Assembly: GCA_016209685.1 (NCBI GenBank)
Contig: JACQVQ010000008.1
Span: forward strand, 129,778-193,777
Direction of reading: 5' to 3'
From: Planctomycetota bacterium
GTDB taxonomy: Bacteria; Planctomycetota; Brocadiia; Brocadiales; Bathyanammoxibiaceae
Length of the DNA: 64,000 nt
Shown: positions 54,954 to 62,493 of the stretch, piece by piece
Position numbering within the stretch: the first letter of the stretch is position 1
Layout: each line of letters starts with the position of its first letter
Program-made: the position numbers and the translations under genes
Notes under the pieces: model-generated
Databases searched by the model: none
Told to the model about the DNA's origin: nothing
The model's input: the letters and a program-made list of their open reading frames with translations, nothing else

Positions 54954-55067
54954 ATGTCTTGTCTTGAGGCCTTTCTTTTAAATCAATTCACTGATTGACA
55001 CACACTGCGGTTGCCCTTATAGTAAAGTAAAGTTTCGCAGGCTAAAGCCTGCGGCTACGGGTTTAGC

Positions 55068-56968: not shown

Positions 56969-58438
56969 ATGATACGGGTACGTTTTGCCCCCTCCCCGAC
57001 AGGCCCCATACACCTGGGTAATGCCAGGACGGCCCTCTTTAACTGGCTCTTCGCCAGGCATAATGGCGGAGTCTTCATACTCAGGATTGAGGATACAGAC
57101 GTTACCCGCTCAGACCCCCGTTACACCCAACTAATTATGGACGACCTCCGGTGGTTAGGGATGGACTGGCAGGAGGGGCCGGATGCGGGAGGGCCTTACG
57201 GGCCTTACGTCCAGTCTCAGAGGCTCTCCACATACCAGGATTTTGCAGAGAAGTTACTGGAGGAAGGGAAGGCCTATCCCTGTTACTGTACCCAGTCGGA
57301 ACTGGAGGAGCGACGGAAGGCGGCCCTGGCCAGGGGCAGACCCCCACGCTATGACAATCGCTGCAGAAACCTATCTGAGGCGGAGAAGAAGGCCCTTGAG
57401 TCGCAGGGCAGAAGACCTTCCCTGCGGTTCCTCATACCGCCTGGCGAGAAATTGGCCTTTGAGGACATGATTAGGGGTAGATGCGAATTCAACCTGTCCG
57501 TGTTAGGGGATTTTGTGATTATGAAGGCAGACGGTACACCCTCTTTCCACATGGCAGTGGTGGTGGACGATGCCCTGATGAGAATAACCCACGTAATACG
57601 TGGTGAAGACCACCTGAGTAATACACCCTTGCATATCCTCCTCTTTGAGGCCCTGGGTTTCCCCAGGCCGCACTACGCCCACCTGCCCATGATAGCAGGG
57701 GAGGAGGGAGACCCGCTCAGTAAGAGGGCTGGTGCCTTTTCCATCCAGGATTACAAGGGGTGGGGCTATCTACCCGAGGCCCTGGTCAACTATATGCTGT
57801 TACTGGGCTGGAGTCCAGGACAGAAGCAGGAAAAACTTACCCTGGCGGAGGCGGTGGAGAGATTTGACGTGAGGCACGTAAGTAAATCCCCCGCCCATTT
57901 TGACCCAAAGAAACTAGACTGGCTGGCAGAAAAGTATCTTCGTCAGGCAGACTCAGAGAGGCTGATAGAACTAATTGTTCCCCTCCTGCCAGAGGAGGCC
58001 AAGAAGGTGGAACGACCAAGGCTAAAGGCCCTCGTAGAGGCTGTCAGGCCGGGGCTTGCCAACCTGTCCCAGGTAGTAAAAGAGTCTGAATGGTTCTTCA
58101 AGGAACCCGTCTTGGACGAAGGCCAGATAACGGCCTTGTCCAGCGACAAACCCCGGGCCGTCCTTGCCCAGGTACTTGAGGCACTTGAAGGGCAGGAAGA
58201 AAGTTTTATTAAAGAGTATAATAAATTTATAAAACAGTTGGCCGAAAAGGGTGGCCTCGCCCCAAAGGAGGTAATGATGCCCCTGAGGCTGGCCCTGACG
58301 GGGAGTACCCATGGCCCCGAACTGGTTGCCGTCATCTCCCTCCTCGGCCATGAGGGATGCAAAAGGAGACTAAAGAAACTACTCACACAGATTGGGCAGT
58401 TGAATAAGAATGAAATCAATCTACTTAAAGAGACATGA
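56969..58438 (+). CDS. gltX: Glutamyl-tRNA synthetase
   Basis: RFAPSPTGPIHLGNARTAL (HIGH) and a PLSKR (KMSKS-like) motif. Confidence 0.95.
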   Translation: MIRVRFAPSPTGPIHLGNARTALFNWLFARHNGGVFILRIEDTDVTRSDPRYTQLIMDDLRWLGMDWQEGPDAGGPYGPYVQSQRLSTYQDFAEKLLEEGKAYPCYCTQSELEERRKAALARGRPPRYDNRCRNLSEAEKKALESQGRRPSLRFLIPPGEKLAFEDMIRGRCEFNLSVLGDFVIMKADGTPSFHMAVVVDDALMRITHVIRGEDHLSNTPLHILLFEALGFPRPHYAHLPMIAGEEGDPLSKRAGAFSIQDYKGWGYLPEALVNYMLLLGWSPGQKQEKLTLAEAVERFDVRHVSKSPAHFDPKKLDWLAEKYLRQADSERLIELIVPLLPEEAKKVERPRLKALVEAVRPGLANLSQVVKESEWFFKEPVLDEGQITALSSDKPRAVLAQVLEALEGQEESFIKEYNKFIKQLAEKGGLAPKEVMMPLRLALTGSTHGPELVAVISLLGHEGCKRRLKKLLTQIGQLNKNEINLLKET

Positions 58439-60128
58439 GCTTTTTAAAGAGCTAAGTCTGCTGGCTAGTAAGGCGATAGACGCCTGCATCCTGAGTACCT
58501 CTACGCTGAATGAAGAGCTGTCCAGGCAGTGCCTAAATGAGTGTGTCAGAATCACGCGGGACGATGGTCTAATCTTTGTCCATGGACTACCGCATACCCT
58601 ACCCTCTTTGCTAGAACCTTTAATGGAGAGTCTTACGTTTAAATACTGGATTGCGATAGAATCTACTCCTGTAAAAGAAGGAAGATGCCTTCCTACTACT
58701 CACTCTGCGGTGGTGCTCTTCGCAAAACAAAAAAAGTACTTCCAAATAAATAAGGCACGATTCCCTCATAGGTACTGTGCCTTTTGCAATAAGACCCTGA
58801 AAGACTGGGGAGGTAAGGCCCACTTGATGCATCCAGACGGATTTGCCGTATCAGATGTCTGGAGACATTTTCCGAAGGCAGATAATTACACCAAGATTTC
58901 CTTACCTGTATTGCAGGCCCTCTTTTCTCTGGCTAATGTGGGGGAGAAAGCAATCTGTGCCGTAGGACCATTAGAAGCCCTCTCTTTTAGAGAGCCTGAT
59001 TACTCCGAGACGACGAAGAGACTAAAATCAATTAATGCACACATTGCGGAGGAACTATTTGATAAATTATACAGCCAGTACGCCTTATCCTTAGAATCCT
59101 CTAGTAAACATACTAAAAAACAATTACCTGGCGAAGTCAAAGTAAATACTCTTGATGAGACTTTACTGGACAAAGTACATCAAGGGGATATAGTAGAAAT
59201 ACTAAAGAGGTATCCTCCAAACTCAGTGGATCTGGTCTTTGCCGACCCTCCGTATAATCTTGACAAAATGTACAACTCTTACGATGACAAAAAGAAAGAA
59301 GGCCTCTACCTGGAGTGGTGTAACTCATGGCTAAAAGAATATATCAGGGTATTGAAGCCCACAGGCTCACTCTTCCTTCTAAACCTTCCCAAATGGGCAA
59401 TCTACCACGCACGTTTCTTGAACCAGTATCTGTTCTTTCAGAACTGGATTGTCTGGGATGCCGTGTCTGAACCACGTGGCAAACTAATGCCTTCTCATTA
59501 CGCACTGCTTTTTTATACAAAACATCCTACTGACTTTACTTTTAACTATGATAGAGTTTCAGAGATTGATGCTCCAACCTTTTGCATTAGGGCTGGCTGT
59601 ATAAAGGAGAGAAAAAAACAGGGCATTGACCAAAAAGTTCCTCTCACAGATATCTGGTGGGATATTCATAGGATAAAGCATAAAAAGGAACGAGACCCCC
59701 ATCCATGCCAGTTGCCTGAAAAATTAATGGAAAGGATAATCCTCCTCACCACAAATGAGGGGGACGTTGTGCTAGATGGTCTTTGTGGAACAGGCACTAC
59801 ACCCCTCGTGGCCACCAGGTTGAAGAGACGATACATTGCTATAGATTTGGATAGAAACTATGTAGAGATAACCAGAAGAAAACTGCAAGAGATAAAGAGC
59901 AAGGGTTACATCTGGAGAGAACCTATCAAAAGATACAAAAAACCAATTACTAAAAAACAATTACAACTTGAGCTAAGAGGGCTAACGAAGACCCTGGGTA
60001 GATTGCCCACAGAAGGAGATATAAGGTCAATGAGCAAATACAGCCTGGAGACATTTAAGGAGAACTTCCCCTCATTAGGAAAGGCCCTTAAGGCGGCTAA
60101 ACTGGAGGTGATGAGTGAAGCCACCTGA
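58410..60128 (+). CDS. Beta-class N6/N4 DNA methyltransferase with an N-terminal degenerate half-domain and a C-terminal homing-endonuclease-associated-repeat-like segment
   Basis: Motif IV VDLVFADPPYNL and motif I VVLDGLCGTGTT. aa ~50-160 parallel aa ~310-420 but lack DPPY. C-terminal GRLPTEGDIRSMSKYSLETFKENFPSLGKALKAAKL. The start overlaps the end of gltX by 29 nt. Confidence 0.8.
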   Translation: MKSIYLKRHELFKELSLLASKAIDACILSTSTLNEELSRQCLNECVRITRDDGLIFVHGLPHTLPSLLEPLMESLTFKYWIAIESTPVKEGRCLPTTHSAVVLFAKQKKYFQINKARFPHRYCAFCNKTLKDWGGKAHLMHPDGFAVSDVWRHFPKADNYTKISLPVLQALFSLANVGEKAICAVGPLEALSFREPDYSETTKRLKSINAHIAEELFDKLYSQYALSLESSSKHTKKQLPGEVKVNTLDETLLDKVHQGDIVEILKRYPPNSVDLVFADPPYNLDKMYNSYDDKKKEGLYLEWCNSWLKEYIRVLKPTGSLFLLNLPKWAIYHARFLNQYLFFQNWIVWDAVSEPRGKLMPSHYALLFYTKHPTDFTFNYDRVSEIDAPTFCIRAGCIKERKKQGIDQKVPLTDIWWDIHRIKHKKERDPHPCQLPEKLMERIILLTTNEGDVVLDGLCGTGTTPLVATRLKRRYIAIDLDRNYVEITRRKLQEIKSKGYIWREPIKRYKKPITKKQLQLELRGLTKTLGRLPTEGDIRSMSKYSLETFKENFPSLGKALKAAKLEVMSEAT

Positions 60129-61029
60129 ACCAAGAAAGCTGTCCTTTGAGGAGGCATGGGAAAGTACAACTGAATTCTTTGTTGATGATAGTGTAGAAGA
60201 AGAGGTTGACAAGAAGATTGAAAATATATACACGGCGACCCGTGGGGTTCATAAGTTTGAAAATATAGACGAGTTTGCCCAGTTTTTAAAAGATGAAGAA
60301 GGTGCGTTAGACTCCGTTTTGGCAGACGTTGGCCTTCCACAAGAGAGATTCAAAAGAATAATAACTTTGTTAAGGAGAAAAGGTAGGATACCAGGAGGTT
60401 TTGACCAGGAATGGGGTATTGGAAGGATAAGAAGACTACTCGTGGACAACGCATTCGCCCATACAATTGCAAACGTCCTTTTCCATGGTAAGGAAGACCC
60501 TTTCCTGAAGAGATACCTCCCGAAATATTACCGAGAAAAGTTAAATTGGGAAGAAATTAGCGACTACGAAGGGAGAAAATTAAAAATAAAAGAAACTATT
60601 TATCGTAGAGAATACGCAAATATCAGGGGCAGAAAGATAGAAGAAATTATAGGGAAAAAACTTGAGGCCATTAAACGCAAATATGGAATAGATTACGGAC
60701 GAGGGCGTTCAAGGCTAGTAGATGTTGACGTTGACTGGGCAGTTCCTGGGGTAGAGGCCCCCTGGGTAGTTATAATGGTTTCCTATCAGGAGACTACATC
60801 CAGTGGACAGACAACGAAGGCACGTGATATGTTGAATGCCTATAATCGCATACGCACTTCAAACAGCCGGAATAGAGAGAACAGGGCTTTTGTTAATTTT
60901 ATTGATGGAGTGGGTTGGCTGGCAAGAAAGGCTGACTTTAAAAGACTTATAGGTGAATGCCATTACTTCTTAAATCTGAAAAATCTGGACATACTGGAAG
61001 GGATCGTGCTAAAACACGTAACTAAGTGA
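60115..61029 (+). CDS. Putative restriction endonuclease partner of the 58410 methylase (assigned by context only)
   Basis: GTG start 4 nt after GGAGGTG, 14-nt overlap with the methylase gene, AT-rich. I could not pin down a catalytic motif. Confidence 0.4.
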   Translation: MKPPEPRKLSFEEAWESTTEFFVDDSVEEEVDKKIENIYTATRGVHKFENIDEFAQFLKDEEGALDSVLADVGLPQERFKRIITLLRRKGRIPGGFDQEWGIGRIRRLLVDNAFAHTIANVLFHGKEDPFLKRYLPKYYREKLNWEEISDYEGRKLKIKETIYRREYANIRGRKIEEIIGKKLEAIKRKYGIDYGRGRSRLVDVDVDWAVPGVEAPWVVIMVSYQETTSSGQTTKARDMLNAYNRIRTSNSRNRENRAFVNFIDGVGWLARKADFKRLIGECHYFLNLKNLDILEGIVLKHVTK

Positions 61030-61035
61030 TTAACC

Positions 61036-62493
61036 ATGAGCCTGAAGATATATAACACACTCACCAGAAATAAAGAAGAGTTTAAGCCCTTACATGAGGG
61101 CATGGTGGGTATGTATGTCTGCGGCCCTACGGTGTATGACCACCCCCACCTGGGCCATGCCAAGAGCTACGTCAGCTTTGACGTGGTGGTACGCTACCTC
61201 CGCTACCGGGGTTATAAAGTTCGCTACGTGCAGAACATCACCGACGTGGGCCACCTGACGGATAATGCCGACGCAGGGGAGGATAAGATAGAACTGCGGG
61301 CACGCCTGGAGCGTCTTGAGCCTATGGAACTGGTGGAGAAGTACATGAGGAGCTACTTTGAGGATATGGACGCCCTGAACGTCTTAAGGGCAGACATATC
61401 CCCCAGGGCCACGGGACACATACCTGAGCAGATTGGACTCGTAGAGAAACTCCTTGAGAAGGGGCAGGCCTACGAGGCGGGAGGTTCGGTGTATTTTGAC
61501 GTTAGGAGATTTGAGGGCTACGGAAAGCTGTCTGGACGAAGACTGGAGGAGTTACAATCCTCCGTAAGGATAGAGCCTAACCCTGAGAAGCGTTACCCAC
61601 TGGACTTTGCCCTCTGGAAGAAGGCACTGCCTGGACACATCCTCAGGTGGAGAAGCCCCTGGGGGGAGGGTTTCCCTGGCTGGCACCTGGAGTGCTCGGC
61701 CATGTCCATGAGGTATCTTGGAGAGACCTTTGATATACATGGAGGCGGTCTGGAGAACGTCTTCCCCCACCACGAGTGCGAGGTTGCCCAGAGCGAGGCC
61801 GCCAATGAAAGGCCGTTTGTGAGGTATTGGATGCACAACAACATGGTAACCGTGGGCGGGCAGAAGATGGGGAAGTCTCTGGGTAACTTCGTCACCCTCA
61901 AACAGGCCTTTGAGAGACATCTACCTATGGTGGTGCGGTTCTTCATCCTGAATTCCCACTACCGCAGTCCACTGGATTACACGGAGGAGGCCCTGGGGGC
62001 GGCCGCCAATGGACTGGAACACCTCCTTATAGCCGTAAAGACGGTAAAAGAGAGGTTGAGATACTCTAAGGAGTTAGCCCCGGAAAAGGCCATCCTGGAC
62101 CAGATTGAGGCCCACAGGAGACTCTTCCTGGGGGCCATGGACGATGATTTTAACACCGCAGAGGCACTGGCCGCCCTCTTCCAGTTCTCAAGGGGAGCCA
62201 ACCTTATCCTGGGTTCCGGTCAGGAAATAAGTCACCAGGCCCTCCTGGAGATGGATAATTTCTATCGCACCCTTGGGGGAGATATACTGGGTATAATTAC
62301 TGAGGCCCCGCAGTTAACAACGGGTAGAGATGAAAAAGAGGAGGCCTTAGTCCAACTCCTGATAGAGACCCGTAACCGTTTGCGTCAGGCCAAGCAGTGG
62401 CAACTGGCCGATGAGTTGCGTAGCCAACTGGACAAGTTGGGGATACTCCTGGAAGATAAACCTGAAGGGACTCAATGGAGGAGGAAGTTGTAA
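61036..62493 (+). CDS. cysS: Cysteinyl-tRNA synthetase
   Basis: HLGHAKSY (HIGH), KMGKSLGN (KMSKS), WHLECSAM. Confidence 0.95.
   Translation: MSLKIYNTLTRNKEEFKPLHEGMVGMYVCGPTVYDHPHLGHAKSYVSFDVVVRYLRYRGYKVRYVQNITDVGHLTDNADAGEDKIELRARLERLEPMELVEKYMRSYFEDMDALNVLRADISPRATGHIPEQIGLVEKLLEKGQAYEAGGSVYFDVRRFEGYGKLSGRRLEELQSSVRIEPNPEKRYPLDFALWKKALPGHILRWRSPWGEGFPGWHLECSAMSMRYLGETFDIHGGGLENVFPHHECEVAQSEAANERPFVRYWMHNNMVTVGGQKMGKSLGNFVTLKQAFERHLPMVVRFFILNSHYRSPLDYTEEALGAAANGLEHLLIAVKTVKERLRYSKELAPEKAILDQIEAHRRLFLGAMDDDFNTAEALAALFQFSRGANLILGSGQEISHQALLEMDNFYRTLGGDILGIITEAPQLTTGRDEKEEALVQLLIETRNRLRQAKQWQLADELRSQLDKLGILLEDKPEGTQWRRKL

Follow-up and report, generated by a model that had tools for sequence, protein, structure and literature searches.

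A probable Type II restriction-modification module inside the sppA-gltX-cysS operon of a Brocadiales lineage, with a dead domain copy in its methyltransferase and exchangeable endonuclease alleles

Genes at the locus

We analyzed a 64,000-nt stretch of a contig from a Planctomycetota bacterium of the order Brocadiales, here called the window; all positions are counted from its first letter. Between the genes for glutamyl-tRNA synthetase (gltX) and cysteinyl-tRNA synthetase (cysS), the window contains a methyltransferase (M) gene followed by a restriction endonuclease (R) gene. We read these as a functional two-gene Type II restriction-modification (RM) module, a long-standing occupant of the sppA-gltX-cysS housekeeping operon in a lineage of Brocadiales (anammox-related Planctomycetota) with small genomes, and we put the probability of this reading at about 0.8. 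The genes and edges at the locus are as follows.

56969-58438, plus strand: gltX, glutamyl-tRNA synthetase (Pfam tRNA-synt_1c, E 4.8e-103)
58400-61029, plus strand: inserted RM cassette, 2,630 bp, with edges taken from comparison with relatives
58410-60128, plus strand: M gene, 572 amino acids (dead N-terminal methyltransferase-like domain, linker, active beta-class domain and a tail of the homing endonuclease associated repeat, HEAR, type)
60104-60108, plus strand: GGAGG ribosome-binding site of the R gene, within the 3' end of the M gene and 6 nt 5' of the GTG at 60115
60115-61029, plus strand: R gene, 304 amino acids, GTG start
61036-62493, plus strand: cysS, cysteinyl-tRNA synthetase (Pfam tRNA-synt_1e, E 3e-114)

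An earlier note on this DNA had described an RM pair packed tightly between the two synthetase genes, made up of AT-rich open reading frames (ORFs), the second with a GTG start behind a strong ribosome-binding site. The ORF map bore this out exactly to the base. The gltX and M genes overlap by 29 nt and the M and R genes by 14 nt, and the R stop is separated from the cysS ATG by 6 nt, TTAACC. The ribosome-binding site is the GGAGG listed above, and the GTG start was confirmed by the N-termini of homologues (MKPPEPRKLSF...). The G+C content falls from about 0.55 in the flanks to 0.40-0.45 across 58350-61050, with about 0.42 over both ORFs.

The edges of the cassette were defined by comparison with relatives. 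On the left, a genome of the same genus (G003) matches the window to ...GATTGGGCAG (58399) and diverges beyond this point, and a contig carrying a deletion scar (G010:C77, see below) retains a homologue of 58400-58421. On the right, the TTAACC before the cysS ATG is common to relatives without the cassette. The last 13 codons of gltX (LNKNEINLLKET and the stop; 58400-58438) come from cassette DNA, and the gltX tail in the window is unlike that of every relative without the cassette. No direct or inverted repeats bracketing 58400-61029 were found, nor was any target duplication.

The methyltransferase carries a dead copy of its catalytic domain

By its profile matches and predicted fold, the M protein is a beta-class N6/N4 DNA methyltransferase, as the label of methylase given to the first ORF had supposed. 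Residues 273-488 match Pfam N6_N4_Mtase (E 7.5e-55), and PADLOC assigned the protein to MTase_II (E 4.7e-75). An AlphaFold2 model (pLDDT 78, pTM 0.76) had M.MboIIA, CcrM, and M.BceJIV as its top Foldseek matches, and the same three enzymes were found in a sequence search of the PDB; sequence and fold searches also returned a rotifer N4-cytosine enzyme and M.RsrI. The best NCBIfam models were adenine-specific enzymes, all under their cut-offs. The motifs occur in the order of the beta class, with DPPY before the loop that binds S-adenosylmethionine (SAM). The parts of the M gene are listed here.

58410-58994, plus strand: degenerate methyltransferase-domain copy at the N-terminus, spanning roughly residues 1-195
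59244-59255, plus strand: catalytic motif IV DPPY, residues 279-282, invariant in a 47-sequence alignment and aligned with the DPPY of M.MboIIA
59775-59801, plus strand: SAM-binding motif I DGLCGTGTT, residues 456-464, aligned with the FxGxG loop of M.MboIIA
59946-60107, plus strand: helical tail, Pfam PF18780 HNH_repeat ("homing endonuclease associated repeat", HEAR), residues 513-566

In the SAM loop, residues D456, G460, G462, T463, and T464 are invariant across the 47 homologues. N6-adenine methyltransferases typically have a motif IV of the form D-P-P-Y. Because the active beta-class domain carries DPPY, its product is most likely N6-methyladenine. The C-terminal tail had been likened to homing-endonuclease-associated repeats; it matched PF18780 above the cut-off (29 bits against 26, E 1.4e-6) and was modeled by AlphaFold2 as four helices.

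The N-terminal region had previously been seen as a half-domain that parallels the catalytic domain and lacks DPPY and the SAM motif. The parallel and both losses hold, while the extent was underestimated: judged by alignment, the region is an almost full-length degenerate duplicate of the catalytic domain. Residues 1-240 matched residues 241-572 by BLASTP (E 4e-6), and profile-profile alignment of residues 1-200 with 245-500 by hhalign gave a probability of 98% (E 9.5e-13, 191 aligned columns). Independently, positions 32-145 of the Pfam N6_N4_Mtase model match the N-terminal part at 29.9 bits. Three internal direct DNA repeats in the M gene have a common offset of 798-802 nt, and the secondary-structure elements run parallel in the two halves of the AlphaFold2 model.

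The position of DPPY in this copy is occupied by STST (58494-58505) and that of the SAM loop by ICAVGPLEA, so that the glycine-rich loop is gone and the copy cannot be catalytic. It has 31 invariant residues across the 47 homologues, including H120, C123, C126, and H138, which argues for a retained non-catalytic role. These four residues form a conserved H-x2-C-x2-C...H cluster (residues 120-138) that might bind a metal. CcrM-type beta-class methyltransferases work as dimers (CcrM, 6PBD). By analogy, we infer that the dead copy could stand in for the second protomer; the basis of this proposal is the homology of the two halves together with the conservation of the dead half. A limited literature search found no paper on this methylase architecture.

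A distant relative of the module was observed in Kuenenia stuttgartiensis MBR1 (L020, 2732-7622), with the order M1 (permuted N6_N4)-R-GmrSD-M2. The active domain of its M2 has a C-x2-C...KDYGGK insert, which in the window protein is kept only by the dead N-terminal copy.

The predicted endonuclease belongs to an uncharacterized family

The 304-residue R protein was modeled by AlphaFold2 with a pLDDT of 90.3. Searching the PDB with this model by Foldseek gave BstEII as the top match (E 6.6e-6), then BsoBI (E 4e-3) and EcoT38I. A PDB search with the R sequence gave no match, and the fold search alone was informative. Residues 181-292 match Pfam DpnII (PF04556) at 24.6 bits against a cut-off of 23, over profile positions 170-272 of 278, and the same core matches RE_BanI (PF24447) at 16 bits, under the cut-off of 28. 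The N-terminal 180 residues match nothing. All 45 residues that are invariant in the family are present in the window R protein, and no non-nuclease homologue of it was found. The PD-(D/E)XK fold and the weak DpnII and BanI matches thus speak for the suspected nuclease, and we treat R as a predicted PD-(D/E)XK Type II endonuclease of an uncharacterized family that has only the catalytic core in common with DpnII and BanI.

The module recurs in other phyla

A database search found 316 R homologues, and for some of them NCBI gives the name "DpnII family type II restriction endonuclease". Searching with M residues 1-250 found 138 methylases, nearly all of 540-600 amino acids and with the same N-terminal region; most also have the HEAR tail. 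The architecture that had seemed odd for this locus is therefore family-wide. The M homologues were mainly from Chloroflexota (Anaerolineae), with others from Nitrospirota, Thermodesulfovibrionales, Spirochaetota, and further groups. At 58 of 76 loci from other phyla, the end of M and the start of R lie within 30 nt of each other on the same strand in the order M-then-R, which supports the designation of the two genes as an RM pair.

The cassette is an old resident of the operon

The close relatives of this genome carry the labels Candidatus Brocadiaceae or Brocadiia, and the order includes Kuenenia stuttgartiensis MBR1. The gene order sppA-gltX-cysS-HD is conserved across the order Brocadiales. 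Family members that lack the cassette have the gltX stop 2-6 nt ahead of the cysS start codon. Adjacent gltX and cysS genes were seen in seven genomes (G003, G005, G007, G017, G020, G024, and G036) and probably in G009, in which a single short contig has a gltX tail that extends to 1 nt from the start of cysS. The comparison of this junction in relatives had been suggested at the outset, with the prospect that gltX and cysS might never be adjacent there; they are adjacent in most, and the cassette is for this reason read as an insert in the ancestral sppA-gltX-cysS string. The cassette "wedged" between the two genes is not a fresh insert but one that is old and has been inherited, and relatives have deleted or partly swapped it.

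At the gltX-cysS junction the cassette was found in at least seven diverged lineages. It lies directly 5' of cysS in the window, in G002, and in the metagenomic contigs L139/L140, L141/L142, L144, and L147, and in L138 with a DUF2283 gene in between. G002 belongs to the same genus, and its cassette proteins have 98% and 97% amino-acid identity to those of the window. Between the window and lineages with an insert at the same junction (L138, G010:C77), dS in the flanks is about 1 or more. Cassette copies at other loci were found in G006, in L137 (within a toxin-antitoxin-rich island), and in L143. In G006 (L015 4812-7951) the cassette lies at an unrelated locus, directly 3' of hicB-hicA, with a Type III mod gene close by; this genome has gltX and cysS on separate contigs, and about 20 nt 5' of cysS resemble the 3' end of R. 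Amino-acid identity between the window and G006 is 81% for M and 72% for R, against 76% for gltX and 85% for cysS. The cassette genes and the two synthetase genes have diverged to similar degrees, which fits long vertical residence.

Two relatives have sequences that point to loss of the cassette. In G010:C77 (L013 584-680), the first four codons of M are joined to the last 26 codons of R between gltX and cysS, and the R remnant was detected by tblastn at E 1.7e-6. By sequence this is an unmistakable deletion scar. In G003 (L014 2020-2060), gltX ends in ...IGQ-HVAR* with cysS directly after it, and the codons CAT GTG GCA AGA TAA align with the R ends CAC GTA CCA AGG TAA (G006) and CAC ATA CCA AGA TAA (C77). 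KHVP(K/R) is the native C-terminus of R even in Chloroflexota homologues, and gltX tails in genomes without the cassette differ from it. G003 is thus quite probably an in-frame deletion derivative in which the last four R codons were fused to gltX. We also considered that HV(A/P/T)(R/K) was the original gltX end, captured by R. This was rejected on two grounds, namely that KHVP(K/R) is conserved in R proteins of other phyla and at unrelated loci and that the gltX tails of non-carriers differ from HV(A/P/T)(R/K).

Further observations concern the same junction. In L138, the DUF2283 gene (994-1460) is inserted between the R stop and cysS, and a second copy of the first cysS bases (ATGAGCC) stands at the upstream junction, which indicates that the junction was hit twice. 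In the Brocadiaceae genomes G016 (L019 2110-2667) and G030 (L034 2019-2582), the gltX-cysS gap is filled by a gene for a "putative restriction endonuclease" of the Uma2 family (Pfam E 1.5e-37), and G032 has a 3.2-kb insert there with a gene on the opposite strand. Across the order, the gltX-cysS junction seems to have received insertions repeatedly. Contig breaks exactly at the gltX/cysS junction were seen in several relatives assembled from metagenomes (G007:C100, G008:C30/C82, G009:C87/C138, and G028:C1/C34), which is what strain-level variation in presence and absence would produce. The genus g2 has lost the gltX copy between sppA and cysS (L026, L023, L027, and L028), with a 56-codon gltX remnant in G013 (L026 1380-1547). 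A second GluRS paralogue, 40% identical, is present in all genomes of the family (G000:C9:152778-153770).

The recognition site

In the 2.02-Mb genome, GATC was observed 713 times against 5,572 expected (observed/expected ratio, O/E, 0.13), the strongest z-score among 4-mer palindromes. The window R protein is the only Pfam DpnII-family match in the genome, contigs with close alleles are GATC-poor, and there is the NCBI label "DpnII family" on some R homologues. These observations would suit a GATC-specific pair, isoschizomeric to DpnII/MboI, that purged GATC from the genome. We regard this as possible but rather improbable. The DpnII match covers the C-terminal catalytic core only, at 24.6 against 23 bits, and RE_BanI matches the same stretch. 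GATC depletion was found family-wide, including in relatives where the cassette was not found (O/E 0.10-0.40), and at 53 carrier loci from other phyla it was only mild (pooled O/E 0.75, with values below 0.3 in 2 of the 53). A Dam-like (D12-class) partner, expected of the DpnII family, is missing at the window locus. Several further methylases and restriction genes are encoded in this genome, including the pair of a NotI-family and a D12-class gene; no other strong D12-class gene is present in it, and this one lies 136 kb off, outside the window. The NotI-family endonuclease gene (Pfam E 1.2e-63) and the adjoining D12-class adenine methyltransferase gene (G000:C8:328537-330406) look like an intact RM pair in their own right.

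The published methylome of Kuenenia stuttgartiensis MBR1 (PMC5854607) was considered as a source for the site and rejected, since the R homologue there is only 27% identical. The GATC methylation in that organism (PMC5854607) is explained by a canonical dpnM/MboI pair rather than by its distant homologue of the window system.

TCGA is depleted to a similar ratio in this genome (253 observed against 2,083 expected, O/E 0.12). Yet the 11-kb carrier contig L137 shows no such depletion, and neither do carriers in other phyla. TCGA was observed 0 times in samples of G002, G003, and G006; only genera g1 and g4 show its depletion, and its frequency is normal in the other genera of the family; no TaqI-family gene was found in this genome (G000). 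Among pooled 5- to 7-mer palindromes there was no carrier-specific outlier, and k-mer avoidance (GATC, TCGA, and the 5- to 7-mers) pointed to no motif specific to carriers.

Proposed transcription through the cassette

The cassette lies in a co-directional string that comprises a flavoprotein gene (55068), sppA (55817), gltX, M, R, cysS, and an HD gene (62570). The best promoter match lies upstream of this string.

54995-55023, plus strand: best sigma-70-like match, TTGACA-17-TATAGT, 11/12, by consensus only, the promoter rules of the phylum not being established

From sppA to the HD-domain gene, no plus-strand terminator-like sites or spacers were seen, and for the cassette itself no promoter or terminator was detected beyond weak promoter-like matches. 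In G003 and G010:C77, cysS is directly behind gltX. Given the lack of a terminator or spacer, the upstream promoter match, and the direct joining of gltX and cysS in the scar-bearing sequences, read-through of the operon is the simplest reading.

Alternatively, the cassette could be transcriptionally autonomous, with M and R driven by an internal promoter and cysS by a second one in the 3' portion of R, in which case the tight packing would have no regulatory meaning. Four plus-strand promoter-like matches in the AT-rich cassette (59068-60833) and the poor knowledge of promoter rules in Planctomycetota are in its favor. The matches are weak, however (9-10/12), and expected in AT-rich DNA. Moreover, cysS does without that DNA in G003 and G010:C77, and in non-carriers it starts 2-6 nt after the gltX stop, so that it is normally served from upstream. 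We consider autonomous transcription unlikely.

Endonuclease alleles are exchanged behind a nearly constant methyltransferase

Comparison of the window with contigs L139 and L141 in sliding windows delimited a segment of the cassette with sharp changes in identity at about 60,150 and about 60,960.

60150-60960, plus strand: body of R, exchanged among alleles (sliding-window identity to L139 and L141)

Nucleotide identity to L139 and L141 is 0.90-1.00 in the M gene, drops to 0.50-0.85 over about 60,160-60,960, and is at least 0.90 again from 60961, over the last 70 nt of R. The high identity runs on into cysS in L141 and L142, and L139 ends soon after the cassette. In L139, L141, and L145, M and the flanks are 95-99% identical to the window and the R body 72-78%; in L145, the 3' end of M is 97% identical and the R body 78%. 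Correspondingly, dS is 0.13-0.17 for M and 0.09-0.37 for the flanks against 1.1-1.6 for R. The four R alleles (window/G002, L139, L141, and L145) have about 71-79% mutual protein identity, and all lie behind M sequences that are at least 95% identical over the stretch that each contig holds. Independent assemblies (L139/L140 and L141/L142) carry the same allele, which makes assembly chimeras unlikely. The combination of near-identical M genes with diverged R alleles indicates recombination. Between the window and G002, dS is 0.10-0.11 for the cassette, against 0.34 for gltX and 0.21 for cysS, which suggests that a whole cassette was transferred.

For both M and R, dN/dS is about 0.1-0.15. As it is about 0.14 in all R alleles, we read these as old functional variants and not as fast-evolving or decaying copies. 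A domesticated or decaying pair, in which M survives as an epigenetic or orphan methyltransferase while R is inactive or dispensable, could account for the repeated deletion of the cassette and for R being the segment that varies and is replaced. Such decay seems very unlikely, because every R allele seen is a full-length open frame under this low dN/dS, the window R keeps all 45 family-invariant residues, and no M-only derivative was present among the loci examined.

An account of the module and its meaning

We propose the following account of a functional module resident in the operon. In the M protein, the active half would be assisted by the dead copy, which, on the analogy with dimeric enzymes, may play the second protomer and help to hold or recognize DNA, and the HEAR tail would add DNA binding. 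R would be made after M and coupled to it, because its start lies 14 nt inside the M gene behind a strong ribosome-binding site. The cassette takes the exact place of the gltX stop/cysS start junction, with the R stop replacing the gltX stop. It would be transcribed by read-through from the housekeeping promoter, and expression of cysS would run through the cassette. The conserved flanking genes would also act as homology arms. The sequence comparisons above indicate that relatives exchange whole cassettes or only the R body by recombination and lose the cassette by internal deletions that leave the operon intact.

Several points weigh against this account. The cysS fragment on the 2.2-kb contig G010:C77 overlaps a second, different cysS copy within its bin, and the contig is probably from another population rather than from G010 proper. 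The scar in G003 spans only 15 nt (four codons and the stop). Co-transcription of M and R with the operon and the dependence of cysS on read-through are inferences from sequence, and there are weak promoter-like matches inside the cassette, for example at 60804-60833. The role of the dead copy is proposed from analogy.

A recent horizontal arrival private to this genome, with the "scars" as chance similarities, would fit a cassette G+C 10 points under that of the flanks and a nearest large pool of homologues in Chloroflexota, but it is already contradicted by sequence data on scar, synteny, and divergence (the tblastn match in G010:C77 at E 1.7e-6 with the M start also kept, the same insert at the same junction in L138 and G010:C77 with flank dS of about 1 or more, and a cassette that has diverged between the window and G006 about as much as gltX and cysS have) and is hardly credible.

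Two bolder readings may also be put forward, although we think them improbable: M would be an obligate intramolecular pseudo-heterodimer of a live and a dead half, in which the dead half recognizes the target, and the R alleles would be kept by balancing selection. Anciently diverged R alleles (dS above 1) that recombine behind one M would be the pattern expected of such selection, exerted for example by phage anti-restriction proteins able to bind R. If so, the flanks formed by essential genes would serve as permanent landing pads. By analogy, a pseudo-heterodimeric M would be a bacterial single-chain counterpart of METTL3-METTL14.

The locus shows, as a clean case from nature, how two genes, whether selfish or defensive, can persist for a long time inside an essential operon. 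The pair would borrow the transcription of the operon, be lost only through deletions that keep the operon in frame, and be exchangeable through its conserved neighbors. Two features are worth attention, namely the fusion of a dead and a live methylase domain and the exchange of alleles of the endonuclease only. The analysis also flags a large uncharacterized Type II family, mostly from Chloroflexota, Nitrospirota, and Brocadiales, with a conserved dead domain copy, and its M protein is a testable model for the use of a second protomer by beta-class DNA methyltransferases. Knowledge of resident restriction systems is of practical value in anammox-type organisms, which are hard to manipulate genetically.

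Comparison with known systems

The C-terminal core of R (about residues 181-292) matches the profiles of both DpnII/MboI (PF04556) and BanI (PF24447), whereas the whole R model superposes best on the structures of BstEII and BsoBI. Only about 100 of the 278 positions of the DpnII profile are matched by the window R. The partner methylase also differs, being Dam-like (D12) for DpnII/MboI and a beta-class N6_N4 enzyme in the window.

The pairing of an active domain with a conserved degenerate paralogue is likewise found in METTL3-METTL14 and the ciliate MTA1c (MT-A70, related to the beta class), and the tandemly duplicated RsmC (PMC1934991) likewise has an active domain and a degenerate paralogous domain without catalytic and SAM motifs. 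METTL3-METTL14 and MTA1c are separate subunits and RsmC is an RNA methyltransferase; in the window, a single bacterial DNA methyltransferase contains both domains, which may be functionally analogous.

The insertion of Type II RM units into operon-like clusters, often at start/stop junctions, has already been described (PMC2853133; review PMC2993543). As in the cases of Furuta, Abe and Kobayashi 2010 (PMC2853133), the window has an RM unit without a linked mobility gene at a stop/start junction with its neighbors intact, and the allelic substitution and deletion remnants reported there (PMC2853133; review PMC2993543) are also seen at the window locus. It differs from those cases in that the insert has no detectable long target duplication, its neighbors are two essential aminoacyl-tRNA synthetase genes, and it persists across genus-level divergence.

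At the pneumococcal DpnI/DpnII/DpnIII locus (PMC4471560), cassettes are exchanged at one site through conserved flanks, as in the window. Whole non-homologous cassettes are exchanged there, whereas here M is constant and only the R body is swapped within one family.

Orthodox Type IIP systems with a beta-class methyltransferase (RsrI, PvuII) likewise have separate M and R genes on one strand in the order M-then-R, with overlapping ends and a PD-(D/E)XK endonuclease. In contrast to these, the window system has no controller protein, and its M has an extra dead domain copy and the HEAR tail. The system is an ordinary Type II RM system of an uncharacterized family, in an operon setting that is unusually tight and long-lived.

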